The position numbers were made by a program, and so were the translations under genes. Positions 2,372-23,317 of a DNA stretch of 25,254 nt are shown here, one piece after another. The stretch's first letter is position 1. Each line of letters opens with the position of its first letter. The notes beneath the pieces were generated by a model that saw nothing but the letters and a program-made list of their open reading frames with translations, was not told the origin of the DNA and made no database searches. Source of the stretch: an uncultured bacterium (lineage in GTDB: Bacteria; Abyssobacteria; SURF-5); assembly GCA_964607485.1 (NCBI GenBank), contig CAZSKP010000055.1, positions 1 to 25,254 of the forward strand, in the 5' to 3' direction.

Positions 2372-3382
2372 TCATTCATCATATTCAGCCACCGTCAAGG
2401 CCGCGAAGTCTGAGATACGGTCCCCGAGCTGGGCCGGCACTATTTGGCAGACACTCCTGTTTCTGGCCAGACACTCTTTCTCGAGGACAGCCTCAACGCT
2501 GTCCATAAGCAGTTCCCTGTTGCGCTCGAAGATGCTGCCGATGACGATCATCTCCGGATTCAGAATATCAATCAGCACCGCAAGACCTCTCCCCAGATAG
2601 TGACCAACCTTCTTAAACACGGATATAGCCACAGGATCGCCCTTTTGCGCGGCCTCGGCCACCGCTCGGGCTGAAATTTCTTCCAGCTTTCCCACATCTT
2701 TACAGAAGCCGGGAGCCTTTCCCTGTTGCAGATGTTCGAGGGCCATTACCCTTGCCACTTGGGCAATGCCCCCTCCACTGCAGAACCCTTCAAACGACCC
2801 TTCCTTCCCGTAGCCGACAGGACCGTTATCAGACAATCTTATGTGTCCCACTTCGCCGGCCATTCCGTTCGCTCCGCTGAACAACCTGCCGTTCAGAATC
2901 AGGCCCGCACCAAGCCCCGTCCCCATGGTGATGAAGATCACATTGCTGCATCCTCTGGCGGCGCCATACCGCCACTCCGCCAGTGCGCCGGCATTCGCGT
3001 CGTTCTGCAACCGGACCGGCACTCTATAACGGTCGTGGAGAATTTCCACTATAGGGACATTGTCCCAGCCGTACAGGTTCGGCGGGCTAAGAATTACACC
3101 GCTTACGAGATCCAGCGGGCCTCCGCAGCTGATCCCTATGGAATTCAGAGTCTTATTGGACGTCCTGTTCTTTTTAATAATGGAGTCGATGGAATCATAG
3201 ATCGTTTCAAGAGTGCTCTCTACTCCGTTCTTTGTATTCGTTGGAAAGGATATTCTGTCCATGATGATATCCTCGGCCTGAAGGGCTTCAGCCCGGGATT
3301 TTCCAGACACCAAAGTACATTTGGTTCCGCCAATATCCAGACCAATGTTGTACCTGTCCAATGACTTTTCTCCCTGTCTCAT
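2372..3382 (-). CDS. ROK-family sugar kinase (glucokinase-like)
   Basis: GLDIGGTK, GISCGGP, NDANAGALAE, GTGLGAG, GEVGH and EGFCSG motifs. Confidence 0.92.
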   Translation of the reverse strand: MRQGEKSLDRYNIGLDIGGTKCTLVSGKSRAEALQAEDIIMDRISFPTNTKNGVESTLETIYDSIDSIIKKNRTSNKTLNSIGISCGGPLDLVSGVILSPPNLYGWDNVPIVEILHDRYRVPVRLQNDANAGALAEWRYGAARGCSNVIFITMGTGLGAGLILNGRLFSGANGMAGEVGHIRLSDNGPVGYGKEGSFEGFCSGGGIAQVARVMALEHLQQGKAPGFCKDVGKLEEISARAVAEAAQKGDPVAISVFKKVGHYLGRGLAVLIDILNPEMIVIGSIFERNRELLMDSVEAVLEKECLARNRSVCQIVPAQLGDRISDFAALTVAEYDE

Positions 3383-3648
3383 TGTGACCTGCTTTAGAAT
3401 CGGTCGTGACGGTGCAAATCAAACGCAGGCATTGCTCGGCGGTAACAGACAAAAGTATACCAGAAAGCAGGGGGATTTTCACTTATGATGCGGAATTTGG
3501 GCGCGAAGGTTTCCTCAGGAAAGGGCAGTATTCTTTACTTCCTAAAGGCGGTGAACTAAGCCCTGAATTGTACGCCTTTAGATGACTTGGCACAGAGGGG
3601 AATTGCGTCCCAAATCTATGCATATACTTCGGAAGATGTGAACACACC

Positions 3649-4188
3649 TTACTTGGCCCTCACAGCCAGGGCCGGTCCCACATCTTTCCCTTCGGGAAGA
3701 TGAGCGACGTGTGTAGCGACGTCGGGGCGACGCAAGAGTTGTTCGAAGTCTCCGAAGTCCAGAGCTCGCATCGGACAGGCGGCGACGCATACCGGAGGTT
3801 CTCCGTTTTCGAGGCGGTCTGTGCAGAAATCACATTTCCGGGCCACCGTGTCTTCCTGCGCGAGAAAGCTGATCGCGTCATAAGGACAGGCGCTTTCGCA
3901 GATGCGGCAGCCAGTGCATTTCTCCCTGTCTATCAGAACAATCCCGTCATCTTCACGCTTGATAATTGCGTCTTCCGGGCACGCGTCGGCGCACGGGGGC
4001 TTTTTGCAGTGATTGCATGAAATCGAAAGATGGAATACCTTGACATTCGGGAATCGTCCTTCCTCGCGCGTTTCAACGCGACGAAAACCGACGGGTCCCG
4101 CCGGCACATCGTGCCAGTCCTTACATGAAACGACGCACGTGTGGCACCCCGTGCATCGGGTTTGGTCGAAACTAAACGCTAGCTGCAT
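3649..4188 (-). CDS. DmsB-like 4x[4Fe-4S] electron-transfer subunit
   Basis: CTGCHTCVVSC, CNHCKKPPCADACP, CTGCRICESACPY and KCDFC...CVAACP motifs. GGAGG precedes the ATG at 4188. Confidence 0.92.
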   Translation of the reverse strand: MQLAFSFDQTRCTGCHTCVVSCKDWHDVPAGPVGFRRVETREEGRFPNVKVFHLSISCNHCKKPPCADACPEDAIIKREDDGIVLIDREKCTGCRICESACPYDAISFLAQEDTVARKCDFCTDRLENGEPPVCVAACPMRALDFGDFEQLLRRPDVATHVAHLPEGKDVGPALAVRAK

Positions 4189-4215
4189 CCGAGCCTCCTG
4201 GGTCAATCTGTATGG

Positions 4216-6342
4216 TCAGGCCTTCTCCACCTGCACCCTCGTGGAATTGAACGGAGTGATTTGGGTCGAGGTGTGAATATCGGGGCAGACCGCATTCGCG
4301 CATCCGTTCTTGTCCACGCCGTCGGCATCGAGGTCGAACTGTATTCCCTGGTCGATGTTGACAGCGCCCGGAACGATGCGCTCGGTCACCCGCGCGGGCA
4401 GGACGGTCGAGCCGGTGGCGCTCGACACTTTTACGAGGTCTCCATTCGCAATGCTTCGCGCTTCTGCATCGACTGAGTTTATCCAGACTTCCTGCGCCTC
4501 GGCTTCTCGCACCCACTCGACGTTGTAAAACATCGAATTCGATGTCTTCTTGCTGTGTCCCGTCACCAGACAGAGGGGAAATGCGCCGTCGTCCTGCGAC
4601 TCCTCCGGCTCGATGTATTTCGGAATCGGCGGAACGCCCGGGTTTCCCAGATCGGCAATCGACTGGCAGAAAATTTCTATCTTGCCGCTGGGGGTGGAAA
4701 AAGGACTGTTCTCGATGTCTTCTATCTGCTCGCGAAACGCAATGTGAGGCCGGTCGAGCTTATATTTTATCGACCCGGTTTCCTTGAACTTTTCCCAGTC
4801 TTCGATTTCGGCGTTTGAACTCAAATACTTCAGCCACTCGTCCTCGGCCATTTCGCTGTATCCATCAATGCCCAGTCGTCCCGCGAGGTCGGCGAGAATA
4901 TCGACGTCGTTCCGGCATTCGCCATATGCCTCGATTGCTTTGTTCGAACAGGTGATGTAATGGCCCAGGAGCCACGGAGTGAACACGTCGTTGCGCTCAA
5001 ACTGGGTTGTGACCGGAAGCACGAAATCGGCGTAGCGAGCCGTCGCGGTGAGAAACTGCTCATGGACAACCATGAATTCGACGGACTTGAGCGCGCGGTC
5101 GGCCTTGCGGACGTTCGCCAACTGGTTCGCGGTGTTGCCGGCGACGGAATAGACCATCCGTATGTCCGACGGATACCCGCCGGCGCGGCCTTCCAGGATG
5201 GCGTCGGCCCACTTGTTGAAGTGGACTGAGACATTGTCCGAACAATACCCTCCCGGCAACTGCATCATCTTTGTCATGATGGGATATCCGAAGATGGGAA
5301 TCCCGGCCTCGCCTCCGGAGACGCCGACATTTCCCGTCATCGCCGCCAGGGTCGCGGTCGCGCGGCTGAATTGCTCGCCATGATTTGTCCGACACGGTCC
5401 GTAGCCGGTAACGAGCGCGGCAGGCTTCGCCGTCGCGTACGCGCGCGCAACCTCGACTATCCTTGCTGCCGGCACGCCGGTTCTCTCCTCGGCCCACTGC
5501 GGCGTCTTTGGAACACCGTCTTCCCGCCCCATGACGTATGTTTTGAATTCCTCGAAGCCCACCGTATATCTGTCGATAAAGTCCCGGTCGTAGAGGTTTT
5601 CGTCGATGATCACATACGCCATCGCGATCAGCATGGCCGCGTCGGTTCCCGGACGGATCGGAATCCACTCGCTTGCGAGGACGGCTGCCGAGTCGGTGCA
5701 TCGTGGATCCACGGCGACGACACGCGCTCCGTTCTCCCGCGCGAGGGCCACATAATATGCCGAGTTCGTCCCCCAGACCGAATCGCTGGGGTTCCAGCCC
5801 CACATGATGATCATGTTCGAGTTGAGCAGGTCCTCTCGCTCATTCGCCGTGAAGACGGTGCCGTAGGTATGAAATGCGGCGAACACGGCGCCGTCGTTGG
5901 AAACGTACGATTCGAGCGTCGTCTGTCCTCCGAACATGTTCAGCAATCGGTCGAGGCACGACCTGCGGTGATATGAGCACTCGTTGGTTCCCGAATGCGA
6001 GATGTTCATGATCGCCGTGGCGCCGTAGCGTTCGCGTATCTCGAGCATTGTCTGCGCGATCGTATCCAGCGCCTCGTCCCAGCCGACCCTCGCGAATGTG
6101 CCGACGCCCTTCTCGCCGGTTCTCTTCAGGGGATACTTTAGCCGGTCGGGATGATAGAGCCGCTGGCGGTATGCGCGACCCTTGAGGCACGCGCGGAGCT
6201 GCAGCCTTCCCGGTTGGTCGGGGAGGGACTCGTCGGATGTGATTCGTTTAACGACGCCATCTTCCACGTGGGCCACAAGCAGACAACTTCCTCCACAGTT
6301 ATGGCCACAGCCGACGGGAATCTTTTGCATCTTTTCCATCAT
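4216..6342 (-). CDS. DMSO-reductase-family molybdopterin oxidoreductase catalytic subunit (DmsA/YnfE-like), no Tat signal
   Basis: N-terminal CGHNCGGSC...CLKG Fe-S motif, HPDRLKYPLKR, WGWNP, IRPGTDAA, ADFVLP and TPSGKIE. The protein begins directly at the Fe-S motif with no twin-arginine leader. Confidence 0.92.
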   Translation of the reverse strand: MMEKMQKIPVGCGHNCGGSCLLVAHVEDGVVKRITSDESLPDQPGRLQLRACLKGRAYRQRLYHPDRLKYPLKRTGEKGVGTFARVGWDEALDTIAQTMLEIRERYGATAIMNISHSGTNECSYHRRSCLDRLLNMFGGQTTLESYVSNDGAVFAAFHTYGTVFTANEREDLLNSNMIIMWGWNPSDSVWGTNSAYYVALARENGARVVAVDPRCTDSAAVLASEWIPIRPGTDAAMLIAMAYVIIDENLYDRDFIDRYTVGFEEFKTYVMGREDGVPKTPQWAEERTGVPAARIVEVARAYATAKPAALVTGYGPCRTNHGEQFSRATATLAAMTGNVGVSGGEAGIPIFGYPIMTKMMQLPGGYCSDNVSVHFNKWADAILEGRAGGYPSDIRMVYSVAGNTANQLANVRKADRALKSVEFMVVHEQFLTATARYADFVLPVTTQFERNDVFTPWLLGHYITCSNKAIEAYGECRNDVDILADLAGRLGIDGYSEMAEDEWLKYLSSNAEIEDWEKFKETGSIKYKLDRPHIAFREQIEDIENSPFSTPSGKIEIFCQSIADLGNPGVPPIPKYIEPEESQDDGAFPLCLVTGHSKKTSNSMFYNVEWVREAEAQEVWINSVDAEARSIANGDLVKVSSATGSTVLPARVTERIVPGAVNIDQGIQFDLDADGVDKNGCANAVCPDIHTSTQITPFNSTRVQVEKA

Positions 6343-6414
6343 AACTTCTCTTTCACATTTGACAAACGCCTGTTCCTGGGTCTTCGGACTTTCCGCTTAT
6401 CGTATCATATTCTA

Positions 6415-6924
6415 TCAGACCCTGAAAAGCCCTCCCTTTGCCTCAAGCTCCTTCAGGAAGAGCGCTATCTCTTCCGCGCCTTCGGCCACGAGCTTGAAGC
6501 ATTTCTCATTTTGCTTCGAGGAATAGAACTCCATTGCCTGCTCGAGGTCGGTGAAGACAACTCCCGATATCTCTCTGCAGATGTGAGATCCGAACTTCTC
6601 GGTGAGGCGTCCCATCAGCTCTTGTCCCGGGACGACAATCGGGAACAGTCCGTCCAAGCCCGCCTCCAATCTCTCTCTGCCCATCAGCAAACCCAGGACC
6701 ATCAGCCCGGCCGTGTGAATTCCGCAGGTGAGAGAACACAGCATGCCACCGTGCATAGCGCCCGCGGCGCGAATCACCAGGGGGTCTTTCATGCCAAATT
6801 CGTCCATGAAAGCAGCAAGGATGCTCTGAGTGCAGCTATCATAGCGCATCATATTGTCACGCGACTTGTCACTGACCCGTGCAATCCAATCCGTTCCTCT
6901 TGGGAGTGAGATGGACTCGACCAT
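6415..6924 (-). CDS. C-GCAxxG-C-C family putative redox protein
   Basis: SCTQS...GGM...TCGIHTAG...FGSHICREI...KC cysteine pattern. Confidence 0.85.
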   Translation of the reverse strand: MVESISLPRGTDWIARVSDKSRDNMMRYDSCTQSILAAFMDEFGMKDPLVIRAAGAMHGGMLCSLTCGIHTAGLMVLGLLMGRERLEAGLDGLFPIVVPGQELMGRLTEKFGSHICREISGVVFTDLEQAMEFYSSKQNEKCFKLVAEGAEEIALFLKELEAKGGLFRV

Positions 6925-7017
6925 TCACGTTACTCCTTGTTTCAGGGGCCGCGTCAGCTTCGTGTCGCGGGGTGCGAAGGTGACCCGCGCCCAACAACTT
7001 CCCTCTTCCCCTCGACG

Positions 7018-7779
7018 CTAGCCGATCAATATCGGATACACCCCGGGAAGACAGGGCCAATCCATGCGCCCCTCGCCCACGGGGGGAGGCGCGAACAGTT
7101 TGTCGTCCCAGCCCGCTTTATGAGCCGTCGCATACATGTCTATGCCCACCGCCTGGGCGGCTGGTCGGCATCGATAGTACTGGAAGCAGATCTGGCTCTG
7201 TTTCGTATAGAGGGGACACTGCAGCGCCTTGCCCTTTCTTGCATCTTTTACCCAATCGGAGCTGAAGAGCCCGCAGATGGTGCATGGCCCTCCGGTGAAA
7301 CCCATGGCGTTGACGTACCCGACGTACTGCGCCTCGACCTCGGTCCTGCCGACGATCTCTTTCATCTTGTTGATACAATCGTATTTCTCGTCGTACGAGT
7401 CGCTCTCGGACGGGGGAATGCTGAGCAGCACCGCCCAATTGTAGTCGTCGATGATCTCTTGCATCTCAGATGCGGACGCCGTGTGGGGAGGGCAGAAGTA
7501 GCCGGAGTTGTATCCCCAGCACGTTGGGATGCGGCATTTCACCCTCATGATCTCATTGGTTGCGATATCGTTCGCGCTGATTGCGATCCCGTCTTCGGCG
7601 CCCAGTTCTTTGGCAAACTCGATTATCTTTGCGAGGTCTTTTTCGTCCACCGAGCTTTTGATCTTCGTCGTTGGCCTGTCTAACCGTTCCGGCATCACAT
7701 CTCTCGACCTCAGCTTCAGAAGCTGGCTTTGTTGCTCCAGCCGCTCGTCCATCCGATCGACATCAGTTTTTTCGGTCAT
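7018..7779 (-). CDS. DUF2284-like Cys-rich predicted metal-binding protein (paralog 2)
   Basis: KCRIPTCWGY...CPP, GGPCTIC, C...C...RPAAQAVGID pattern. GAGG-type RBS upstream. Confidence 0.8.
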   Translation of the reverse strand: MTEKTDVDRMDERLEQQSQLLKLRSRDVMPERLDRPTTKIKSSVDEKDLAKIIEFAKELGAEDGIAISANDIATNEIMRVKCRIPTCWGYNSGYFCPPHTASASEMQEIIDDYNWAVLLSIPPSESDSYDEKYDCINKMKEIVGRTEVEAQYVGYVNAMGFTGGPCTICGLFSSDWVKDARKGKALQCPLYTKQSQICFQYYRCRPAAQAVGIDMYATAHKAGWDDKLFAPPPVGEGRMDWPCLPGVYPILIG

Positions 7780-7842
7780 TGTTTCCGCCTCCTTGATTCA
7801 TTGGCTTGCTTTAAGAGATACGCCGCTTCGAACACTTCCCCT

Positions 7843-8529
7843 CTAGCCGACGAGCACAAAGGCGTAGTATGGGCATTCGGGTACACTGTCCACGCCGGTT
7901 TCGGGAAAAATCAACTCGTCGGGCGCCCATCCCTGGTCGCGAATAAACTCGACGATGTCGATGCCCGAAGGCTCGGCCGATGGCCTGGCCCTTCGGTGGG
8001 AACGACAGACGCCGTTGCGTATCGCCGTGCAATAGACCGCGTCCTGTCCGCTCATTACCTTCTCATACCACGGCTTGGTCCACATGCCGCAGCAAACGCA
8101 GGGCCCGCAGTTGAATCCCATGGCCTTGTAGTATCCGAGTTCATGGGCCTTGGATTCGATCACGCCGACGATTCTGTTCAACTTGCCCGACCACAGGCCG
8201 GCGTTGCCGAACGTCTCTATAATGTTCCCGTCCTTCGGTACGGCGACAGCCTCCCTGGGGCTGTACATCACGCCCATGACGCCGTACTCGTACGAGGAGG
8301 GGACACATTGGGCCATGAGCTCCTTGCGAGGCGTGAACGGGGGACACTGGAAGGTGTTGCCGTAAGAGCCGCAATTGGGGTACTCGCATTTTCGGCGGAT
8401 GGATTCTTTGAAATACAGCTCTGAGGCCTTGACCACGCGAGTCTCGACGCAGCCCATCTCTTTGAGGTAATCCTGGAGGATTTCCAAGTCTTCCGGGAGG
8501 ACCTTGAACTTCACCTTGCTTTTTGCCAT
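7843..8529 (-). CDS. DUF2284-like Cys-rich predicted metal-binding protein (paralog 1)
   Basis: KCEYPNCGSYG...CPP, GPCVCC, C...C...ARPSAEPSGID pattern. AAGGAG RBS favours the start at 8529 (MAKSK). Confidence 0.8.
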   Translation of the reverse strand: MAKSKVKFKVLPEDLEILQDYLKEMGCVETRVVKASELYFKESIRRKCEYPNCGSYGNTFQCPPFTPRKELMAQCVPSSYEYGVMGVMYSPREAVAVPKDGNIIETFGNAGLWSGKLNRIVGVIESKAHELGYYKAMGFNCGPCVCCGMWTKPWYEKVMSGQDAVYCTAIRNGVCRSHRRARPSAEPSGIDIVEFIRDQGWAPDELIFPETGVDSVPECPYYAFVLVG

Positions 8530-8644
8530 AACGCTCTTCTCCTTACTGTAAGCTCTTCTCGTTTCGCACCGACTCCCCAAGCACGTGGGCGAGGATTCCA
8601 TGGCGGTAGAATTCTCTTATCACGAACGGCACGAGCGCCACATT

Positions 8645-11041
8645 CTATCCGCAGACGCACATCTCCGTCCGACGGATGATTTCTTCCTGGGTTCCGAGCG
8701 ACAGGTCGACAAAGCGGGCGCTATAACCTGTCACGCGGACAATCAGGTCTTCGTATTTCTCAGGATGTTTCTGCGCGTCGCGGAGCGTTTCGGCGTCGGC
8801 GACGGTGATCTGCAAGTGCTGCCCTCCCATCTTGAAGTAGGATTTCAGCATCGAAGCGAACTTGCCGACCTGGTCCCTCGTGCGAAAGAGCGACGGGTTG
8901 AATCGCATATTGAGCGACCCTCCGCCGGCCACCTTGCTATAGTCGATAGCAGCCATGGAACGGAGCATCGTCGTCGGGCCATCGCGGTCCATGCTCGATG
9001 TGGGACCCGAGCCGGGACTCAGCATCTCTCCCGCATGCCGGCCGTCGGGCGTGGCCGCCACCATAGAGCCCTGATATACGTGGTGGGCCTCAGAGTGCGC
9101 TCCCAGCAGGTGCAGACCCCCGCGATAACTCAACGGCTGCGCCCTCAGAGTCTCGTCCATGTAGTCAACAATATCTCTGGCGATTGCATCGGTCTGCTCA
9201 TGGCCGTTCCCGAACTTGGGGGCGTGGTTGATCAACATCTGCCGTTCCTGCTCACTCTCTTCGAAATCCGTCTTGATCCAATCAACCACCTCATCCAGCG
9301 AGTGCGTCTTCTTTTCATAGACGACTTCCCTGATTGCAGCCAGCGAATCCACCGCCGTGCCCAGGCCGACAAGGCTCACGCCGACTTCGTTGTAGCGAGT
9401 GCCTCCCGCCTTCACGTCTTTGCCCGATTCCATCGGCCCCTTGGACAGGGCCGAAATGATCGGGTTGGGAAGATGGCGGTGATGCACCCTGCCCACCACT
9501 TTCATTGCCAGCGCGACGTGCTCGACCACGTGCTTGAGCATCTCCTTGTAGGCGCCGAACAGCTCGTCGAATGAGGTGAACGCGGGAGTGGGCAAATCGT
9601 CCTCGTCGCCCATAATCGAGATGATCGGCTTGCCTCCATTGAGCGTCATCTCGAGAATCTTGGGCGCGTTCATGAAGGCCGAGCAGTTCGGGCCGTACAT
9701 GCCCGCCGGCACAGGCTGCACACAGCCGCCGATGATGTAGTCGCGTGAGTCTTCCAGCGACAATCCCAGTCGGGTAAAGCCCGGGATGATGACCTCGTCG
9801 TTGAATACTTCCACAACGTTGCCGCCGTTGGTCATCAGCTCGGACACCGCTTTCACAAACGCATCCGGCGAGCCACCATGCAAGCGCACCGCGAGGTTCG
9901 GGCTGAGAAGCCTCAGGTTGTCCATCGCCTCGAGGAACAGGTACGACAGCTCGTTTGTCGCGTCGTTGCCGTCCCTGTCCACACCGCCGATCGTGAGTGT
10001 GTATCGCGTGGAGTTGCCGTCGTTGACCTTCGTGACCGCATATTCGACCAGGAAAGGAGTGCGCGCGCAATTGACGAAGAACTCCTCGATCAGTTCGAGC
10101 GCTTCATCGCGCGTCAGCCGGCCTTCGTCGATATCTTTTCGGTAGTAGGGGGAGAGAAACTGGTCGGCCCGGCACAGCGGAAGCTCCATGCCCATATCGA
10201 GTTGCTGCAGCGCGACGAAAGTGAACCAGTACGCCTGCAACGCTTCGTGGAAGGTGCGCGCGGGTTTGGCCGGAACGTGGGCGCAGACCTCGGCGATCTC
10301 GTTGAATCTGCTTCTGCTCTCCTGCGAAGATGACTTGACTGCAAGGTATTGGGCCAATTGCGAGTAGCGGGAGCCCAGCAGGATCACGCCCTCGGCGTAT
10401 GTGACGACCGATTTGTAGAATGTCCGCTTCTCCTCTGCCTCGGGGTCGCTATCGGAGATGCGAGCCATGTTCGTTTCGGCCTCTTCGATTATCCCGTCAA
10501 AACCCTGCGTTATGGCTTTGCCGTAATCGATGTAGCCCAATTGGTTCGCTCCGGCGAAGTCGTTCTCGACGACCATCGCGATGCTTCGCATCAAGAATTC
10601 GGTCTCCTCGCCGATGTTCTCCTTTGTGAAGCAATCATCATAGGCGCTGGCGCCGTCCCAGAAGGGAAATATCTCTTCGCGCAGCGTGTGCTTCTCTTCG
10701 TCCGAGATCATAAACCGCACATATGGCCGCTCGGTGAACGTGTCCAGCTCCTTGATCAGGCTCGAGCTCTTGACTTCGGGATACATCACGGCGCCCTTGA
10801 ATTTTTCCGTGATGTTGCCGACAATGCGCTGATCCTCGGAGATCGACAGCGGAAGCTTTTTGAAAGTCTCCTTCACTCCGAGAGCCAACTGGAAGGCGCG
10901 CGGAAGGTCGGGATTGTCCCGTATTGCCTTGGTTATCTCTCGGGCTCGAATCAGGCCCACCTCCATCGGCGCATCGATGACTCGCCGACGCATGCTTCGA
11001 AGTCTGTCAGACAATGTTCTCGTTTCGGTTGCCGTTGTCAT
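8645..11041 (-). CDS. Glycyl radical enzyme (PFL2/eliminase-like size), substrate unknown
   Basis: 798 aa. Glycyl loop RVTGYSARF (Gly772), thiyl loop GGCVQP (Cys440), plus PARTFHEALQ, TIGG, PKFGN and ATPDGR. AAGGAGG RBS. Confidence 0.95.
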   Translation of the reverse strand: MTTATETRTLSDRLRSMRRRVIDAPMEVGLIRAREITKAIRDNPDLPRAFQLALGVKETFKKLPLSISEDQRIVGNITEKFKGAVMYPEVKSSSLIKELDTFTERPYVRFMISDEEKHTLREEIFPFWDGASAYDDCFTKENIGEETEFLMRSIAMVVENDFAGANQLGYIDYGKAITQGFDGIIEEAETNMARISDSDPEAEEKRTFYKSVVTYAEGVILLGSRYSQLAQYLAVKSSSQESRSRFNEIAEVCAHVPAKPARTFHEALQAYWFTFVALQQLDMGMELPLCRADQFLSPYYRKDIDEGRLTRDEALELIEEFFVNCARTPFLVEYAVTKVNDGNSTRYTLTIGGVDRDGNDATNELSYLFLEAMDNLRLLSPNLAVRLHGGSPDAFVKAVSELMTNGGNVVEVFNDEVIIPGFTRLGLSLEDSRDYIIGGCVQPVPAGMYGPNCSAFMNAPKILEMTLNGGKPIISIMGDEDDLPTPAFTSFDELFGAYKEMLKHVVEHVALAMKVVGRVHHRHLPNPIISALSKGPMESGKDVKAGGTRYNEVGVSLVGLGTAVDSLAAIREVVYEKKTHSLDEVVDWIKTDFEESEQERQMLINHAPKFGNGHEQTDAIARDIVDYMDETLRAQPLSYRGGLHLLGAHSEAHHVYQGSMVAATPDGRHAGEMLSPGSGPTSSMDRDGPTTMLRSMAAIDYSKVAGGGSLNMRFNPSLFRTRDQVGKFASMLKSYFKMGGQHLQITVADAETLRDAQKHPEKYEDLIVRVTGYSARFVDLSLGTQEEIIRRTEMCVCG

Positions 11042-11074
11042 CCGAATCGCCTCCTTACCGGATCGCTGAAAGGC

Positions 11075-11803
11075 CTACAGCCTTCCCTGCAGCTCCCTGG
11101 CCTTTTCCTTCTGCCTCGACGCGAAGACGGGCCCGTGTTCGGTGATGTCTTGACCCAACACAAACTCGATGTGTTCCCTGGCTTCGGCCTTCTTGCGCCT
11201 GGCGAGCTGGAGTTCGGCCAGCGAGAGGGCAGCCACCGGGCATCCCGGAGCGAGTTCTCGCGCGCGGGTGAGATGCTCGAGCGACTTCTTCTTGCTGCCG
11301 ACGCCGATCGGTTTTGGAGGCGAAAGCCTGTAAAGATTCCCGAGCACCTGGTGAGCCATGGCGTTGTTGTAGGACTCATCAAGCTCGACGGCGCGTTTGG
11401 CATAAGCTTCGATCCTGGGAAGATAATGGAGGATGCTGAGGATGCCCTCCTCCTGCCCGTGAATGCCGAGCATCGCGGCCGCCCAGGCATTCGAATAGAC
11501 ATTTGTGTCGTCCAGCTCCAATGCGCGCTCGGCCAGTTCCGCCCCCTTCTTCGCGATCGCCGTCCGCGTTTTGCTTCCCTCTTCCGCATAGTCGTAACGC
11601 CAGAACTCGACGGCCGCAAGCATGGCGTATATGCGTGACTGCACGGGCGGGTCGGTGACTTTCTCCAAATGTTCCTTCAGCAGGGCCTCGGCTTTGTCGA
11701 GGTTGTTGTTCTCCTCACATCTGTCGATGAATTCATCTACCTTCTCGAACATCGATACGAGTTCTGATTCTGCCGCGTTCACGTCAAGGCTTTTCTGTTC
11801 CAT
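11075..11803 (-). CDS. TPR-like all-helical protein (TatT/RMDN-like), no signal peptide
   Basis: AERALELDD, KRAVELDESY...AHQVLGNLY...P...G...SLEHLTRARELAP repeats. GAGGAGG RBS favours the start at 11803 (MEQKS). Confidence 0.75.
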   Translation of the reverse strand: MEQKSLDVNAAESELVSMFEKVDEFIDRCEENNNLDKAEALLKEHLEKVTDPPVQSRIYAMLAAVEFWRYDYAEEGSKTRTAIAKKGAELAERALELDDTNVYSNAWAAAMLGIHGQEEGILSILHYLPRIEAYAKRAVELDESYNNAMAHQVLGNLYRLSPPKPIGVGSKKKSLEHLTRARELAPGCPVAALSLAELQLARRKKAEAREHIEFVLGQDITEHGPVFASRQKEKARELQGRL

Positions 11804-11894
11804 AACAACTCCTCCTCTCATTTCCTGAATGCCGCGACTGACCCTGGAGTCTCTCACGTCGGAGCACGTCGGCCAACATCCAGCGACCATTGTT

Positions 11895-11916
11895 TTATAT
11901 TGACTGTTCAATATAA
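11895..11916. promoter_or_regulatory. Palindromic operator TTATATTGA-CTGT-TCAATATAA (BetI-box-like)
   Basis: Perfect 9-bp inverted repeat overlapping the -10 and likely start site of the operon promoter. Confidence 0.75.
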
Positions 11917-11941
11917 TATCACAGAATCTTACCTATGTCAA
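11913..11941 (-). promoter_or_regulatory. Sigma70 promoter of the GRE operon
   Basis: TTGACA-17 bp-TATTAT on the minus strand. Confidence 0.8.
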
Positions 11942-12123
11942 GCCCCTGATGGCTTTGCCCGAAATTGGAGATCATGCCAGTTAATGCTCTCACGAGTGAA
12001 TATACATAATCTTCGCATTATAAAGATATTTACGAAACATATATACACAAGCCCTTTTTGCTGCTCTATGGCTGAACCTGGTAGATTCCAGGCGACAAGG
12101 GTGCGGAGAAACAAAGCGACGGC

Positions 12124-12152
12124 TTGCTTTTTTATCTCATACATGATACAAT
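12124..12152 (+). promoter_or_regulatory. Putative sigma70 promoter of the TetR gene
   Basis: TTGCTT-17 bp-TACAAT, with an extended TGn before the -10. Confidence 0.55.
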
Positions 12153-12176
12153 AATGCACGAGAGGAGGTTGCGGCG

Positions 12177-12770
12177 ATGCCCAAAATTGTTGATCACGAG
12201 GCCAGGCGTATGCAGGTCGCGGAGGCCACGTGGCGAGTCATTGCGAGAGAAGGCATAGAATCGACGACTATCGGGGAAATCGCGAAGGAAACAGGATTTT
12301 CGACCGGCATCTTTGCCCACTATTTCAAGAACAAGAAGGAGCTGCTCCTCTATGCGCTCCAGCTGGCCTCATTGCGCATAGGCGCGCGCATGTGGAAGAA
12401 GGGCGAGGAGTCAAGCGGAGGGGAAGTGCTGAGGAATGTGCTGCTCGAGGCGCTCCCTCTCGATGAGGAACGCCGGCTGGAGTGGCAGATCTGGGTGGCA
12501 TTTTGGGGGGGCGCCATAAGCGATGCCGCTATGGCAGAAGAACAAAGGCGCTGGTATATCGAGTATCGAAGCCTCTTAAGAAGTCTGATCCTCGATGGAC
12601 AGCGCAACGGATATTTTCGATCAGACATTAACGCGGAAGAAGAAGTCGATTCAATAATCGCTCTGGTGGACGGTCTTGGGATGCGGGCGACGATGGAGCC
12701 CCAACGATTCCCGCCGAAATACCAGACCGCGCTGCTGGACCGACATCTGTCCTCGCTTCGGCACGGCTGA
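12177..12770 (+). CDS. TetR-family repressor, BetI/PksA-like
   Basis: MPKIVDHEARR start, HTH with IAKETGFSTGIFAHYFKNKKELL, and a BetI-type C-terminus (W..FW, ALVDGL). GAGGAGG RBS. Confidence 0.92.
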   Translation: MPKIVDHEARRMQVAEATWRVIAREGIESTTIGEIAKETGFSTGIFAHYFKNKKELLLYALQLASLRIGARMWKKGEESSGGEVLRNVLLEALPLDEERRLEWQIWVAFWGGAISDAAMAEEQRRWYIEYRSLLRSLILDGQRNGYFRSDINAEEEVDSIIALVDGLGMRATMEPQRFPPKYQTALLDRHLSSLRHG

Positions 12771-12927
12771 CATCGCGCTCCGGCGACACGGAATGCGAAC
12801 ATCACAGGCCGAAACGTACAACTTGCTCGATGGTTCAAATACGGCTCTTGGCAGCCAAGAACTACGTGTTCAAGGTGCAATTCAGAAGGTTGAGGAATTC
12901 AGACATGTCGTCATTCTTCTTTCTGAA

Positions 12928-13177
12928 CTACTCCTTGCGGTCAACGACTCTCGCTTCCATGACAATTCGGCCCCAGCCGCCGCACCGCACCCCGACGTCC
13001 GCGCGCCCGGTTCTCTTGAACAACATTTTGTCCGGGTCAATGCCGGCATAGTACAGCTCATGCACTCCGAAGACTACCTTGTCCAAGCCGGCCAGGGCAT
13101 ACATACAAACTCTCTTCCGGACAACGTTCGGTCAGGAGATTGCCGGCTCCGTCGAAATAGAATTTGTCGCCGACCCT
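12928..13177 (-). pseudogene. 5'-truncated, frameshifted remnant of a small hypothetical protein with a CGGWG motif
   Basis: VGDKFYFDGAGNLLTERCP, then a frameshift near 13118, then KRVCMYALAGLDKVVFGVHELYYAGIDPDKMLFKRTGRADVGVRCGGWGRIVMEARVVDRKE*. Confidence 0.65.
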
Positions 13178-13399: not shown

Positions 13400-14158
13400 T
13401 TATTTCGCTCATTTCCCTAATCCGCTGAAGGGACTGTAACTTACAGCAATCCCGAGAACTTACCGCGCGGTCTTTGCCAGAGTCGCCTTTCCTATACTTT
13501 CCAAAAAAAGCTTGACAAGTATTCACTTATATGATAAGTAGTTTCTGGTTTTTGGGGGGGAATGTGATTCAACTCAATTGCTTCACATCTGGCACGCTGG
13601 CAGCACATCTGAGAATCCTCACCTTCAGGCATCTCACCACAAAGCCCATGGCCCGTGAGGTCCTTGAATTCTTCTGTTGCCCCAAGAAAGCGGGAGCGCT
13701 TTAAGCGGACGTTTTTCTTGGCGGCGAGTTGCGCTGCGGAAAGGCGGGCTACCCGAGCCGCCGACACGTAACTCCTCTCCAAATCCCGGAAGGGAAATGA
13801 ATCTTGTCTCCAGTGCGCGAAGAAAGCGTCAAGGAGCACCCCGCCTTTGGTGGCGAGCTGTCCCATCCGGCTCCTTTCATTCTCCCATCCCTGTTTCGGC
13901 GGAAGGGATTCTATGTGCAAGCTGTTTCCCTTCTCCCCCATGTCTGCAATTCACGACGTGGACCACCCCAGTTGACAAAAGCAGTTACCTGCCTTGCCTG
14001 AAACAGGAATAAGGAACTTGCGGGCATTGAGATAGAATGGGCCGCTTGTGTGAAGGGGTGTTTCAACTCCCTCTTCCACGATGGAGTCATTGTGTCAAGA
14101 AGCTCAATTTATCGGAAGCAAGACGCAAGTCGGAATCTCTTTAGGAGGTACATCAGAT

Positions 14159-16228
14159 ATGAGACCCAAATATGTGCTACCCTTGTTACTTTGCTGCTTT
14201 CTGTTCCTGATTCCCGTAAACGGCGTCGCAGAATGTCCCGACTGTGGCGACGCCTGTGATCCACTGGGAAATGGGTATGTGCTTATTGAGGAGCAGCTGC
14301 AACCGAGCAGCGTGACCCTTGTGTATGTGCTGAACCCTGGTCCGGAATATATCATGGCGGACTTTTACGGCAGTGGAGCGGTATGGCCTGAAGGCTCCAC
14401 CGAGGCTTTCGGCAGGCAATGGGACCTGTATCCTCTCGGAAGCTATCGTATCAGTGACCTGTCTCAACCGGGATTCGTCACGTGGACCTCCGACGTTACC
14501 GGGCAGTCCTGGGTGGGTCGTGAAGATTGTCGAGTCGGCGCATGGACGTGGGACATATGGACGGGCCCGACTATCGGTGACACCTGGTCCGTGTACGGAA
14601 CGCTCACCACGGTTCCCGACACCGAGGAACTTCCCGCGGGCTACGACTACGTGTGGGAGGCTCACTGGACGGTCACCGCGGTGAGATTCTGCCCCCAAAC
14701 TCTATATCCGGGTGCCCCCCCTCAGTATACCTGTGAGATCGACTTCGGAGTCACGGGTGCATTATATGTCAGGGTAACTCCGGTTGACGAAGACGGCGAC
14801 GGAGCGCTTTCCGACGTGGACTGCGACGACCTGGATTCGAGCGTGTATCCGGGCGCGCCCGAGTTGTGTGACGGGAAGGACAACGACTGCGACCCGACGA
14901 CTTCCGCTGTAGGCGGTGAGGCAGACGCGGATTTGGACGGTTCTCTGTCGTGTGCCGATTGTGATGATGCCAACCCGGGGGTGAATCCCAGCGCTTATGA
15001 ACTTCCGGGGAATGCCATTGACGAAAATTGCGACGGTTCGCTGGGTGACTGCGACGATCCAACCCGCATCTGGAAGAACCACGGTCAGTACGTCAGATGC
15101 GTGGCGCACGAGGTCAACGATCTGGTCGCCCAGGGCGCCATAACCCAGGATGAAGGCGATGGGTTGGTGAGTTCGGCGGCGCAATCCGATACGGGCAAGA
15201 AGGATGGCACAGTCCTAACATCTGAGGAAAGCGCGGCGGCATTGAGCCAACCCACTGACTGCGGCGACGCCTGCGATCCTCAGGGACATGGGTACGTGCT
15301 TATTGAGGAGCAGCTGCAACCGAGCAGCGTGACCCTTGTGTATGTACTGAACCCTGGTCCCGAATATATCATGTCGGACTTTTACGGCAGTGGAGCGGTA
15401 TGGCCTGAAGGTTCCACCGAGGCTTTCGGCAGGCAATGGGATCTGTATCCTCTCGGAAGCTATCGTATCAGTGACCTGTCCCAACCGGGATTCGTCACGT
15501 GGACCTCCGACGTTACCGGGCAGTCCTGGGTGGGTCGCGAAGATTATCGAGCCGGCGCATGGACGTGGGACATATGGACGGGGCCGACTATCGGTGATAC
15601 ATGGTCGGTGTACGGAACGCTCGTCGTAGTTCCCGATACCCAGGAACTCCCCGCGGGCTACGACTACGTGTGGGAGGCCCACTGGACGGTCACCGCGGTG
15701 AGATTCTGCCCCCAAACTCTATATCCGGGTGCTCCTCCTATGTATACCTGTGAGATCGACTTCGGGGTTACGGGCGCATTGTATGTCAGGGTATCTCCCG
15801 TTGACGAAGACGGAGACGGAGCGCTCTCAGATGTGGACTGCGACGACCTGGATTCGAGTGTGTATCCGGGCGCGCCCGAGTTGTGTGACGGGAAGGACAA
15901 CGACTGCGATCCGACGACTTCCGCTGCAGGCGGTGAGGCAGACGCGGACGTGGACGGATTCCTGTCCTGCAACGATTGTGATGATACTGTCGCGGCGGTG
16001 AACCCCGGCGCCTATGAGCTTCCAGGGAATTCCGTCGATGAAAATTGCGACGGCTCGCTGGGTGACTGCGACGATCCCAACCGCATCTGGAAGAACCATG
16101 GCCAGTATGTCCGATGCGTGGCCCACGAAGTGAATGACCTTGTCTCCCAGGGCATCATAACGCAAGATGAAGGCGATGAATTGGTGAAGACGGCGGCCCA
16201 ATCCGATACTGGCAAGAAGCAAGACTGA
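14159..16228 (+). CDS. Secreted protein with MopE-like Cys/Asp metal-binding repeats, made of two tandem units
   Basis: AGGAGG RBS and a signal-peptide-like MRPKYVLPLLLCCFLFLIPVNGVA. DCDDxDxxVYPGAPELCDGKDNDCD repeats. WKNHGQYVRCVAH module present twice. Confidence 0.85.
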   Translation: MRPKYVLPLLLCCFLFLIPVNGVAECPDCGDACDPLGNGYVLIEEQLQPSSVTLVYVLNPGPEYIMADFYGSGAVWPEGSTEAFGRQWDLYPLGSYRISDLSQPGFVTWTSDVTGQSWVGREDCRVGAWTWDIWTGPTIGDTWSVYGTLTTVPDTEELPAGYDYVWEAHWTVTAVRFCPQTLYPGAPPQYTCEIDFGVTGALYVRVTPVDEDGDGALSDVDCDDLDSSVYPGAPELCDGKDNDCDPTTSAVGGEADADLDGSLSCADCDDANPGVNPSAYELPGNAIDENCDGSLGDCDDPTRIWKNHGQYVRCVAHEVNDLVAQGAITQDEGDGLVSSAAQSDTGKKDGTVLTSEESAAALSQPTDCGDACDPQGHGYVLIEEQLQPSSVTLVYVLNPGPEYIMSDFYGSGAVWPEGSTEAFGRQWDLYPLGSYRISDLSQPGFVTWTSDVTGQSWVGREDYRAGAWTWDIWTGPTIGDTWSVYGTLVVVPDTQELPAGYDYVWEAHWTVTAVRFCPQTLYPGAPPMYTCEIDFGVTGALYVRVSPVDEDGDGALSDVDCDDLDSSVYPGAPELCDGKDNDCDPTTSAAGGEADADVDGFLSCNDCDDTVAAVNPGAYELPGNSVDENCDGSLGDCDDPNRIWKNHGQYVRCVAHEVNDLVSQGIITQDEGDELVKTAAQSDTGKKQD
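14240..16219 (+). repeat. Intragenic tandem duplication: 14240-15202 and 15257-16219 (offset 1017 bp)
   Basis: Near-identical DNA and protein from DCGDACDP to SDTGKK in both halves. Confidence 0.95.
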
Positions 16229-16483: not shown

Positions 16484-16560
<77 letters not shown>

Positions 16561-20383: not shown

Positions 20384-20457
20384 GGGCGCTTAGCTCAGTT
20401 GGTTAGAGTGCTTGCTTGACATGCAAGAGGTCAGTGGTTCAACTCCACTAGCGCCCA
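20384..20457 (+). tRNA. tRNA-Val (GAC), CCA not encoded
   Basis: GGGCGCT/AGCGCCC acceptor stem, anticodon arm CTTGC-TTGACAT-GCAAG, GTTCAA T-loop. Confidence 0.96.
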
Positions 20458-20499
20458 CAAAGAACAATGCCGAAGCGGAAACATCCACATCATCCGGGG

Positions 20500-20527
20500 A
20501 AAACAAGACGATGAGTCTTGTTTTTTT
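20500..20527 (+). terminator. Intrinsic terminator-like hairpin after tRNA-Val
   Basis: aaaacaagac-gatga-gtcttgtttt with a T-run. Confidence 0.6.
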
Positions 20528-20583
20528 GTCTTGAACTGCGGGCGCGCGGCCCTTTTTCTTCTCGACACGCTGAAAGAATGACT

Positions 20584-22500: not shown

Positions 22501-22557
22501 CCGAGTTTTCTTTCCGTTTGAACGGTTGGGTCGAAGGCCTCGAGGAGAAAAGAAGAA

Positions 22558-22890
22558 ATGGCACAGGCGCCCTCCAGATGTTTCACACACACCGAACGCA
22601 CCGCCGTCGCACGATGCAAACAGTGTCACAAGCCACTCTGCGAGCGATGCGTGAAGAAGATGCCCGGCGGCATCTATTGCAGCGACGAATGCTACAAGAA
22701 GGCCGCCTCGTTCCATGATCGCGTGGAAAAGCTCGATGCGCAGACCAAACGCGGCCCAGGCCTGGGAAGACTCGTGGGAAGGCTCGTCATTCTCGCGGTA
22801 GTGATAGCCATCCTCTACTACGTGTTTGTCTATGAGGGCGTGCGTGGAGTTGGTGATTTCATAAATCTCTTGAAAGGGCTGGTTCCTTAA
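22558..22890 (+). CDS. B-box-type zinc-finger protein with a C-terminal transmembrane helix
   Basis: CFTH...CKQCHKPLCERC...YCSDEC, followed by hydrophobic LVILAVVIAILYYVFVY. Confidence 0.8.
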   Translation: MAQAPSRCFTHTERTAVARCKQCHKPLCERCVKKMPGGIYCSDECYKKAASFHDRVEKLDAQTKRGPGLGRLVGRLVILAVVIAILYYVFVYEGVRGVGDFINLLKGLVP

Positions 22891-22909
22891 GACAGGAGGG
22901 GGAGAGAAC

Positions 22910-23317
22910 ATGCTGAGCCAGTGGAAGAAGATTCTGTTCATCTTGATTATTGCCGGAGTGGTGTATGGGAGCTGCAACACGCAGACCATGCTGAAGACGG
23001 AGACCTTTTTTCGGGAGAAAAACCCAAACCTCGCCCTCACACCCAAGGTCTGCTATTTTCTCGGCAATGTGGCGTACATGACATTCCGCTACAAGCTCGC
23101 CATCGACATCATCGACCGTAATCTCAAGGATTTTCCCTACGCCGGCGGCGCGACGCAGGCGGAATACAGGCGGGCCGTCTGCTATGAGAAGCTGGGCGAT
23201 TACGTGAAAGCGATCCAACTCTACGAAGACTTTCTTCTCGCACATCCCAAAGACAATAAGTACCAATCGATTGAAAACAAGTTAGCCAAGCTCAAGGCGC
23301 TTCATGCGGCAGAGTAG
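22910..23317 (+). CDS. Membrane-anchored or lipoprotein TPR protein
   Basis: N-terminal hydrophobic segment, TPR-like AEYRRAVCYEKLGDYVKAIQLYEDFL, AGGAGG RBS. Confidence 0.75.
   Translation: MLSQWKKILFILIIAGVVYGSCNTQTMLKTETFFREKNPNLALTPKVCYFLGNVAYMTFRYKLAIDIIDRNLKDFPYAGGATQAEYRRAVCYEKLGDYVKAIQLYEDFLLAHPKDNKYQSIENKLAKLKALHAAE

Follow-up and report, generated by a model that had tools for sequence, protein, structure and literature searches.

A glycyl radical enzyme superclade with a predicted rebuilt pocket and a possible link to organoarsenicals, represented by a bacterial operon that has no activase gene of its own

The closest described relatives of the enzyme considered here are the glycyl radical enzyme (GRE) 1,2-eliminases, such as the choline trimethylamine-lyase CutC, glycerol dehydratase, HypD and IslA. 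As described in the available excerpts of a 2026 review (PMC13450708), which also cover the catalytic roles of Cys433, Glu435 and His164, a glutamate two residues past the thiyl cysteine (the CXE motif) binds the substrate hydroxyl, and the motif is kept by all characterised eliminases and isomerases; the role of a packing aromatic residue (Phe395 of CutC) is described in an excerpt of PMC8473560. We analysed a GRE gene carried by a contig from an uncultured bacterium of the Abyssobacteria lineage SURF-5 (CAZSKP010000055.1, assembly GCA_964607485.1), which was taken whole (25254 bases) and is called the window below. The gene belongs to an operon that codes, in order of transcription, for a TAtT/RMD1-like tetratricopeptide repeat (TPR) protein, the GRE, two DUF2284 proteins, a C_GCAxxG_C_C protein, a DmsA-like molybdenum enzyme and a DmsB-like iron-sulfur (FeS) subunit. 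The GRE has the fold, the length, the glycyl loop (RVxGYSA) and the thiyl cysteine position of the 1,2-eliminases, but it differs from them in reading CVQ in place of CXE, in having Glu286, Arg346, Cys453 and His649, and in ending in a CxC tail.

A functional analogue only is offered by ArsI (in part PMC7229686): its active-site Cys pair binds trivalent organoarsenicals, and its gene keeps company with ArsM, ArsP and efflux genes in small operons under ArsR control, a setting similar to that of relatives of the window GRE. An excerpt of PMC7229686 gives ArsH and ArsI as the two known methylarsenite-destroying enzymes, both obligately O2-dependent; ArsI also has an unrelated fold, whereas the candidate proposed here is a GRE. 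Anaerobic demethylation of methylated arsenic governs arsenic speciation in flooded soils and sediments, and in an excerpt of a preprint (bioRxiv 10.64898/2026.08.27.747368) its mechanism is called less resolved and arsI is reported as not detected there. Arsenic, molybdenum, mercury and tetratricopeptide proteins do not come up in the 2026 GRE review, and no arsenic-acting GRE was evident in the listed titles and abstract openings of literature pairing glycyl radical with arsenic. The novelty lies in a GRE subfamily whose pocket, partner and genomic theme are all new, and not in an activase-free pathway. With its Cys/His/Glu/Arg pocket and its ties to ArsR, ArsM and ArsP-type genes, this GRE clade is a concrete enzyme to test; if the proposal developed below is true, the superfamily would gain both a reaction class and a kind of partner (the TPR protein) that are new to it, and should another element than arsenic be the right one, the clade still breaks the CXE rule of all characterised eliminases and isomerases.

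Gene families in the window were assigned by comparing Pfam and NCBIfam profile scores of its 19 large open reading frames (ORFs) with the curated cut-offs. The GRE is a member of the superfamily, with a PFL-like barrel and a glycyl radical domain in which Gly772 lies within RVTGYSA. Its scores against the NCBIfam equivalog models for HypD (513, cut-off 1100), CutC (489, cut-off 1050), HpsG (487, cut-off 1000), HpfG (468, cut-off 1000) and the PflD type (450, cut-off 1109) are all less than half of the respective cut-off, and the broad PFL2-3 subfamily model was also missed (609.8 versus 678.2). Among solved structures the top matches, at 496 bits for CutC and 453 bits for glycerol dehydratase, are distant relatives (∼33–35% identity). 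A comparison with 5.8 billion clustered proteins gave no more than 25 other clusters with at least 49% identity to the GRE, and the next tier is found at ∼40%.

Pocket positions were mapped by residue alignment to the structures of glycerol dehydratase (1r8w) and CutC. Cys440, within GGCVQP, aligns with glycerol dehydratase Cys433 and with the cysteine of CutC GCVEP, and it is invariant in the alignment of relatives. Around it, residues of glycerol dehydratase are replaced as follows: His164 by Gln167, Ser282 by Glu286, Tyr339 by Arg346, Asp447 by Cys453 and Tyr640 by His649. The CXE glutamate is also replaced, by Gln442 (the window reads C-V-Q); among the 25 close relatives this position is Gln in 20, Glu in 4 and Ile in 1. 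Arg346 occupies the site of the packing Phe of CutC, in place of the substrate-packing aromatic of CutC, HypD and IslA. Cys453 is a second invariant cysteine, 13 residues past thiyl Cys440, and the His-x-Glu-x-x-His strand (H-S-E-A-H-H) contributes His649, Glu651 and His654. The loss of the CXE base is in keeping with a reaction that begins elsewhere than at a hydroxyl group of the substrate. As judged from these alignments, the enzyme has an intact glycyl loop and thiyl cysteine within a rebuilt pocket.

The combination Glu286/Arg346/Cys453/His649/Glu651 (hereafter, the signature) is present in 25/25 full-length close relatives and in the protein P0032, and in none of the other 33 among the 60 best hits. 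One scan of species-representative genomes yielded 77 related loci, from which 91 GRE ORFs were aligned with that of the window. The signature occurs in all 10 close-clade genes, which are spread over eight loci (L001, L002, L003 twice, L004 twice, L005, L009, L010 and L067), and in 13 sister loci whose GREs are 36–41% identical (L006, L007, L008, L011, L014, L017, L019, L020, L021, L022, L024, L026 and L028); it is partial in L023. In a FastTree phylogeny of the 92 sequences, a superclade of 25 GREs that includes those of the window and L023 is monophyletic (support 0.993), as is a close clade of 11 GREs (support 1.0), within which the window GRE pairs with that of L001. By these comparisons the GRE belongs to no characterised family, its place being in an uncharacterised superclade with a new predicted active-site set. 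An earlier reading made from the letters of the window (the sequence-only reading) had matched the locus to no recognised GRE pathway, and the equivalog scores and the distance to the best solved structures bear this out.

Some further features of these GREs were noted. Close-clade enzymes end in E-x-C-x-C-G or in one invariant cysteine (Cys797), and the sister clade is without this tail; the C-x-C form containing Cys797 is found in the window (CVC, 8645-8662), L001, L003 and L004. At L006 (657-10900), three tandem GREs and two activases stand behind one ArsR-type regulator, and the signature is present in the first GRE only. Asgard archaeal metagenome-assembled genomes (MAGs) hold two to four tandem GRE paralogues per locus, of a different, non-signature type (L033, L055, L056, L057, L047 and L073). 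At L067 (3964-6361) the GRE is split into two overlapping ORFs, by a frameshift or an assembly error.

The top solved match, choline trimethylamine-lyase at 496 bits, brings up the reading of the GRE as a 1,2-eliminase of the CutC kind, with an onium compound resembling choline or betaine as its substrate; the BetI-type TetR regulator would sense that compound, and the molybdenum enzyme would handle an N- or S-oxide that is its product or precursor. The C-terminal domain of the regulator is of the BetI type (its score of 77.8 is under the NCBIfam BetI cut-off of 118 bits), and a gene for an MtgC-like corrinoid protein and an MtaA-like gene lie nearby in L003. The pocket speaks otherwise: the CXE glutamate is replaced by Gln in the window and in 20/25 close relatives, and the cation-pi Phe by Arg346. 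Furthermore, the CutC equivalog score is 489 against 1050, and genes for a microcompartment or an aldehyde dehydrogenase were not found in the window. We consider this eliminase quite improbable.

The genes that surround signature GREs in other genomes point in another direction, to an arsenic or metalloid context that the sequence-only reading had not seen. ArsR/SmtB regulators are encoded in 10/23 signature loci (window counted) and in 1/53 others, which had similar flank lengths (Fisher p = 1.1e-5, a value that overstates independence since the loci are phylogenetically related, which weighs against the arsenic reading given below). They stand upstream of the GRE in L005, L006, L007, L008, L009, L010, L011, L014, L019 and L067. 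A vicinal Cys pair closes nine of the ten, frequently in the form CCP and in two cases as CCPPDCC; the tenth carries CC and CxC further upstream, and the single regulator among the comparison loci has neither. The vicinal pair is a site of the AfArsR type: according to excerpts of PMC11868830, AfArsR binds As(III) via C-terminal Cys95, Cys96 and Cys102, and a two-Cys form of SpArsR responds to MAs(III), not As(III). Genes for the arsenite methyltransferase ArsM (cut-off 263 bits) adjoin the GRE in L002 (360 bits), L067 (339 bits) and L007 (287 bits). These matches carry the NCV and GCV cysteine motifs, which we take to be those with a role in this family. ArsP_1 permeases are encoded in L003 and L023, a GET3/ArsA-type ATPase in L023, MatE pumps in L008, L011 and L023, and MBL-fold proteins in L007, L023 and L024. 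Many signature loci look like small resistance operons, made up of a regulator, an enzyme with its activase and sometimes a pump.

Corrinoid-type genes were observed at two of these loci. Downstream of the activase of L003 (16638-22361) there are genes for an MtaA/URO-D-like protein, an ArsP_1 permease, an MtgC-like corrinoid protein and Fer4, an arrangement that resembles a set for corrinoid methyl transfer next to the GRE paralogues. In L024 (2745-4186) an HgcA-like corrinoid protein (166 bits, cut-off 275) stands at the activase position after the signature GRE, together with a ferredoxin stretch, and further on there are MarR, AraC, MBL and PhsA-like molybdenum enzyme genes.

The reading that we favour is that the window holds a TetR-controlled operon for one of several TPR-GRE paralogues, and that the substrate of the superclade is an organo-metalloid that binds thiols, most probably an organoarsenical; our confidence in it is evenly balanced. 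Held a little less firmly, and tentatively, is the narrower proposal that the superclade acts on trivalent organoarsenicals by cleavage of the C-As bond, as an anaerobic counterpart of the O2-dependent ArsI. A trivalent organoarsenical, for example methylarsenite, would be anchored by Cys453 (together with the tail) near the thiyl cysteine, and thiyl-radical chemistry would cleave the C-As bond. For the paralogue of the window, the natural oxo-transfer step would be the reduction of an organoarsenical with pentavalent As=O, giving the trivalent substrate, and it would fall to the soluble Ser-ligated DmsAB-like enzyme; the C_GCAxxG_C_C protein and the pair of DUF2284 proteins might be electron donors to the anchorless DmsAB-like enzyme, As(III)-removing thiol carriers, or both; and the TPR protein would be a clade-specific partner of the GRE, as subunit or ligand handler. 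There is also a bolder version, which we regard as unlikely: the superclade would be the missing O2-independent C-As lyase and the window would add an organoarsenical As(V) reductase in the form of its soluble DmsAB-like enzyme, served by the DUF2284 and C_GCAxxG_C_C proteins as dedicated Cys-rich redox partners or carriers, which together would complete anaerobic demethylation outside methanogens. Here, the Cys440 thiyl would attack the substrate, perhaps through homolytic substitution at arsenic with loss of a carbon radical that then regains an H atom; in the close clade the CxC tail would join Cys453 in binding a methyl- or aryl-arsenical; and the products would be an As(III) thiolate and methane or an arene.

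Several of the same observations could be accommodated by a different soft element. With an unchanged architecture, the substrate would then contain sulfur, selenium or another soft metal in organic form (methylated sulfides or sulfoxides, selenides, methylmercury), and the DmsAB-like enzyme would reduce an S- or Se-oxide. The molybdenum enzyme is closest to DMSO/TMAO reductases and to the YnfE/F selenate reductase models; L007 has an MddA-like gene (142 bits, below cut-off) with rhodanese, MBL and homocysteine S-methyltransferase genes, and L024 the HgcA-like gene with a PhsA-like molybdenum enzyme. In addition, the ArsR-type regulators weakly match BigR (26–41 bits versus 155), and there are selenoprotein forms of C_GCAxxG_C_C and DUF2284 (tables of PMC13188914, an excerpt). 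The cysteine arrangement of the regulators is one point that separates the two readings, the vicinal C-terminal CC in 9/10 of them being an arsenical-type site. Persulfide sensors have a separated Cys pair. Furthermore, the ArsM matches exceed the curated cut-off and bear the NCV/GCV motifs, and ArsP- and ArsA-type genes are present. A substrate of this kind is a serious rival, which we rate as rather unlikely, and an organoarsenical is retained as the preferred one.

A number of points weigh against this preference. The window itself does not have the makeup of an ars operon, since its regulator is of the TetR family and it holds no ars gene; the arsenic link is one of guilt by association in relatives that are 36–58% identical. 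The hidden Markov models (HMMs) for ArsR, ArsM and C_GCAxxG_C_C were trained on signature-locus hits (seven proteins in the case of ArsR). An ArsM beside a C-As lyase makes no obvious pairing, the sulfur-type genes of L007 (MddA-like, rhodanese, MBL, homocysteine S-methyltransferase) and the HgcA-like gene of L024 point elsewhere, and reduction in the cytoplasm of harmless As(V) to toxic As(III) brings no clear benefit. The pocket positions come from sequence alignment and not from structure, and the roles of glycerol dehydratase Ser282, Tyr339, Asp447 and Tyr640 are those that we assume. DUF2284 was found by tblastn in 0/77 GRE loci. Finally, the activase in trans that is proposed below is taken from relatives, the window contig alone being known for its own organism.

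A cognate radical S-adenosylmethionine (radical-SAM) activase is usually encoded next to a GRE, and none was detected within the 25254-base window. Radical_SAM had zero Pfam matches among the 19 large ORFs; the sole CxxxCxxC in any frame of at least 60 aa lies in a 60-aa frame (21587-21766) within the thrS region; and a tblastn search with eight clade activases, like an HMM made from the same eight, matched only the ferredoxin part of the FeS subunit (3760-4023). The three checks agree with the sequence-only reading, which had seen no radical-SAM activase. It had also named an activase routinely adjacent in homologous loci as an outcome that would overturn it; on this point it is not supported, as an activase adjoins the GRE in 17/22 other signature loci. 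In L003, L005, L009, L010 and L067, and likewise in 12/14 sister loci, the gene directly downstream of the GRE codes for an activase that scores above the TIGR02494 cut-off. The loci where no adjacent activase was found are L001, L002 (a 6.4-kb contig), L004 (whose contig stops 74 bases past the GRE), L014 and L024 (where the apparent match is a ferredoxin stretch of only 24.7 bits). At L020 (12396-13344) the activase is split into two ORFs, by a frameshift or an assembly error.

The most informative of these loci is L001, an orthologous locus in the order TetR-TPR-GRE-Mo-FeS with 63–79% protein identity to the window. No activase was found within 10 kb on either side of it, nor any DUF2284 or C_GCAxxG_C_C gene. 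L001 shares one Poribacteria MAG with L003, which reads TetR-TPR-GRE-TPR-GRE-activase, and in this MAG a single visible activase thus stands against three TPR-GRE pairs that are paralogues of one another. The glycyl loop RVTGYSA is identical in the window, in L001 and in the activase-adjoining L003 paralogue. Known cross-activation is between GREs with conserved glycyl loops (PMC13450708, within section 2.5), and the cases described in the available text, the sharing of PflA by E. coli PFL and TdcE and cross-activation involving HPAD and BSS/IBSS, resemble the present one in this respect; they differ in that cross-activation is here deduced from the RVTGYSA shared by the window, L001 and the L003 paralogue. 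Activation in trans is the best reading of the activase found in 17/22 loci, the MAG shared by L001 and L003 and the identical glycyl loop: we consider it quite probable that the glycyl radical is installed by a conventional radical-SAM activase encoded elsewhere, beside a paralogue with the same glycyl loop. A trans-acting activase was one of two options offered by the sequence-only reading, and it is the one favoured here.

The other option was activation without a radical-SAM activase, by way of the Cys-rich DUF2284 and C_GCAxxG_C_C proteins, as part of a new catabolic pathway. Neither the window nor L001 has an activase, and DUF2284 has conserved Cys clusters and no known function. Nothing else was found that speaks for such a route: canonical activases occur in 17/22 related loci, the glycyl loop is identical to that of an activase-linked paralogue, DUF2284 is without CxxxCxxC, and L001, which has no activase, also has no DUF2284 or C_GCAxxG_C_C, so that these are no general substitute. 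We hold this route to be very improbable. Still less weight is given to the possibility that the locus is a non-functional remnant from which the activase was lost by deletion, as might be suspected from its absence at the place, immediately past the GRE, where an activase is found in most relatives. None of the seven ORFs is broken, every catalytic and signature residue is present, no activase remnant was detected, and the same activase-less order is found in L001. Comparison of the window with L001 gave ratios of non-synonymous to synonymous substitution rates (dN/dS) of about 0.07 (GRE), 0.06 (molybdenum enzyme), 0.09 (TPR protein) and 0.08 (TetR), values that are rough because dS is saturated. 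Low dN/dS (∼0.06–0.09) places the activase-less copies under purifying selection; the arrangement is maintained and not decaying, and the deletion derivative envisaged by the sequence-only reading as an alternative does not fit.

The TPR protein is the only partner conserved around close-clade GREs. Its gene lies directly upstream of 9/11 close-clade GRE genes and is present in 6/8 close-clade loci and 0/14 sister loci; in L003 and L004 it is duplicated along with the GRE. It resembles the small subunits of GREs in that its gene adjoins that of the catalytic subunit and the two are duplicated together, but known GRE small subunits are HiPIP-like or rubredoxin-like Fe proteins (PMC13450708, within section 4.2) whereas the TPR protein is all-helical with no conserved Cys cluster. 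Its atlas clusters are annotated as RMD1-3/TAtT. A complex prediction for GRE residues 22-798 and TPR residues 21-242 gave a weak score (median 0.47; best of three controls 0.00), with at least 85% of contacts agreeing between three runs and a partner predicted local distance difference test score (pLDDT) of at least 85. The mark applied to such scores is reached by 116/157 solved complexes and 2/215 mismatched pairs, and at scores of up to 0.60, where the present one falls, 18/157 solved complexes passed and both passing mismatches are also found. The conserved pairing and the predicted complex lend mild support to a physical partnership of the TPR protein and the GRE. The nearest solved structure is the sterol-binding BstC (7t1s, E 1.4e-8), and with this as nearest relative a ligand-handling role is also possible. 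Translation most likely starts at the ATG at 11803, which has a GGAGGAG ribosome-binding site in front of it and is the point from which the eight homologues align.

The DmsA-like enzyme belongs to the Ser-ligated DMSO reductase family, with the molybdenum domains, the FS0 Cys motif and an aligned serine ligand: Ser148 aligns with the serine of DYSTAAA in Rhodobacter DMSO reductase (1eu1, the best solved structure), whose Ser147 we take to be the molybdenum ligand. Its sequence begins MMEKMQKIPVGCGHNC; it aligns to the dmsA_ynfE model (TIGR02166) from model position 47, scores 602.6 against a cut-off of 777.7, and has no RR motif. Neither a twin-arginine translocation (Tat) leader on the enzyme nor a gene for a DmsC anchor in the operon was found, and because of this the DmsAB-like pair should be soluble and cytoplasmic, as predicted in the sequence-only reading. 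The pair is thus like DmsAB, DorA and TorA in domain set, FS0 motif, serine ligand position and four-cluster DmsB-like partner, and unlike them in having no Tat leader or DmsC, in scoring below the subfamily cut-off and in forming a distinct group of 26 clusters, these being orthologous at 68–83% identity and followed by a very large family at no more than 52%. The FeS subunit is likewise under the DmsB cut-off (TIGR02951; 179.4 versus 214.1 bits), and its orthologue in L001 is 63% identical. Orthologous Mo/FeS genes occur in 1/22 other loci (L001); Mo/FeS and GRE genes are probably also together on a 38171-base contig (GRE P0005, molybdenum enzyme P0152), a co-location deduced solely from equal contig size and source. 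At L055 a molybdenum enzyme 42% identical to that of the window is encoded ∼8 kb downstream.

The C_GCAxxG_C_C protein scores below the DVU_1555-family cut-off (45.6 versus 103) and recurs in 3/22 other loci: L002 (67% identical, downstream of the GRE), L007 (twice) and L019, with DVU_1555-type members above cut-off in L007 and L019. It is thus found in 4/23 signature loci (window counted) versus 0/53 other GRE loci. With DUF2284 in 0/22, C_GCAxxG_C_C in 3/22 and Mo/FeS in 1/22 other signature loci plus one presumed case, the gene neighbourhood is mostly not conserved, an outcome that the sequence-only reading had named as one that would refute it. The first DUF2284 protein most likely starts at 8529, because homologues are 225–245 aa long; it has five invariant and two nearly invariant cysteines. 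The second gives a weak match (47.4 versus 575 bits) to NF041536, a model for a selenoprotein in which ArsM and DUF2284 are fused, within its DUF2284 portion. Both accessory families are tied to ArsM-type methyltransferases in NCBIfam, through the NF041536 fusion and the DVU_1555/DVU_1556 pair, and both have selenoprotein forms (NCBIfam; tables in an excerpt of PMC13188914). DUF2284 homologues are rare (18 clusters), and none of the 18 matched a GRE cluster in contig size; a Lindowbacteria DUF2284 (P0122) and GRE (P0016) share a locus-tag prefix on separate contigs. Literature mentions of DUF2284 that were found are table entries only, no PDB sequence matched at E up to 1, and no CxxxCxxC motif is present. 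An AF2 model of the first protein (pLDDT 73, predicted template modelling score 0.75) has its Cys loops at low confidence, and Foldseek was too weak for a fold to be assigned (none at E ≤ 0.001; best E 2e-3, TM 0.36). Its weak matches were reductive dehalogenase, epoxyqueuosine reductase QueG and nitroreductase folds, which are those of cobalamin/Fe-S or flavin enzymes.

The seven co-directional minus-strand genes extend over 3649-11911 with inter-gene gaps of ∼10–115 bases and face a divergent TetR gene; all eight genes that the sequence-only reading had listed were found, with the families it gave (Table 1). It had also placed one promoter with an operator in front of them, and of these the promoter stands. 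This site is the top one of 8 sites in 3300-13100, where shuffled sequences have a mean of 4.0 sites; its −35 TTGACA and −10 hexamer are invariant or nearly so in comparison with the intergenic regions of L001, L003 and L004, the other TetR-type loci, in which the stretch after the −10 hexamer is also kept. An operator could not be defined, there being no inverted repeat of at least 10 bases in 11780-12200. TetR orthologues of 59–76% identity are equally divergent in L001, L003 and L004, and the divergent TetR is a probable repressor of the operon. A riboswitch in the 5′ untranslated region found no support, with zero Rfam matches in 11700-12250 at E up to 1.

Table 1. Features of the operon and its control region in the window
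Feature	Position	Strand	Evidence
TetR-family regulator, BetI-type C-terminal domain	12177..12770	+	TetR_N 45.4, TetR_C_6 93.2 bits
Sigma-70-like promoter, TTGACA-17-TATTAT, TG-extended	11941-11913	-	11/12 positions match
TAtT/RMD1-like TPR protein, ~242 aa	11075..11803 (ORF to 11911)	-	TAtT 37.4 bits; without signal peptide
GRE, 798 aa	8645..11041	-	PF02901 PFL-like 559.5, PF01228 Gly_radical 105 bits
DUF2284 protein a	7843..8529 (ORF open to 8601)	-	PF10050 76.7 bits (cut-off 25)
DUF2284 protein b	7018..7779	-	PF10050 84.1 bits (cut-off 25); 29% identical to a
C_GCAxxG_C_C protein	6415..6924	-	PF09719 71.3 bits (cut-off 27)
DmsA/DorA-like Mo-bisPGD oxidoreductase, 708 aa	4216..6342	-	Molybdopterin 173.5, Molydop_binding 75.3, Molybdop_Fe4S4 28.5 bits
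DmsB-like FeS subunit, four [4Fe-4S] motifs	3649..4206	-	Fer4_11 101.3 bits; four Cys groups in translation

The flanks consist of housekeeping genes (ROK kinase, PHP-type hydrolase, class II aldolase-like, PFK, thrS, aroA and two tRNAs), which marks the locus as chromosomal and not an evident island. The tRNA genes, at 16487-16560 (minus strand) and 20384-20457 (plus strand), are the sole Rfam matches at gathering score in the window. Threonyl-tRNA synthetase is encoded at 20518-22500 (plus strand; tRNA-synt_2b, HGTP_anticodon, tRNA_SAD and TGS), and the 871-aa ORF that overlaps it at 20431-23046 (minus strand) matches no family and is probably spurious. A further ORF, at 14081-16228 (plus strand), codes for 715 aa in which four MopE-like repeats, putatively Cu-binding (PF11617, 125.5 bits), are the only family matched.

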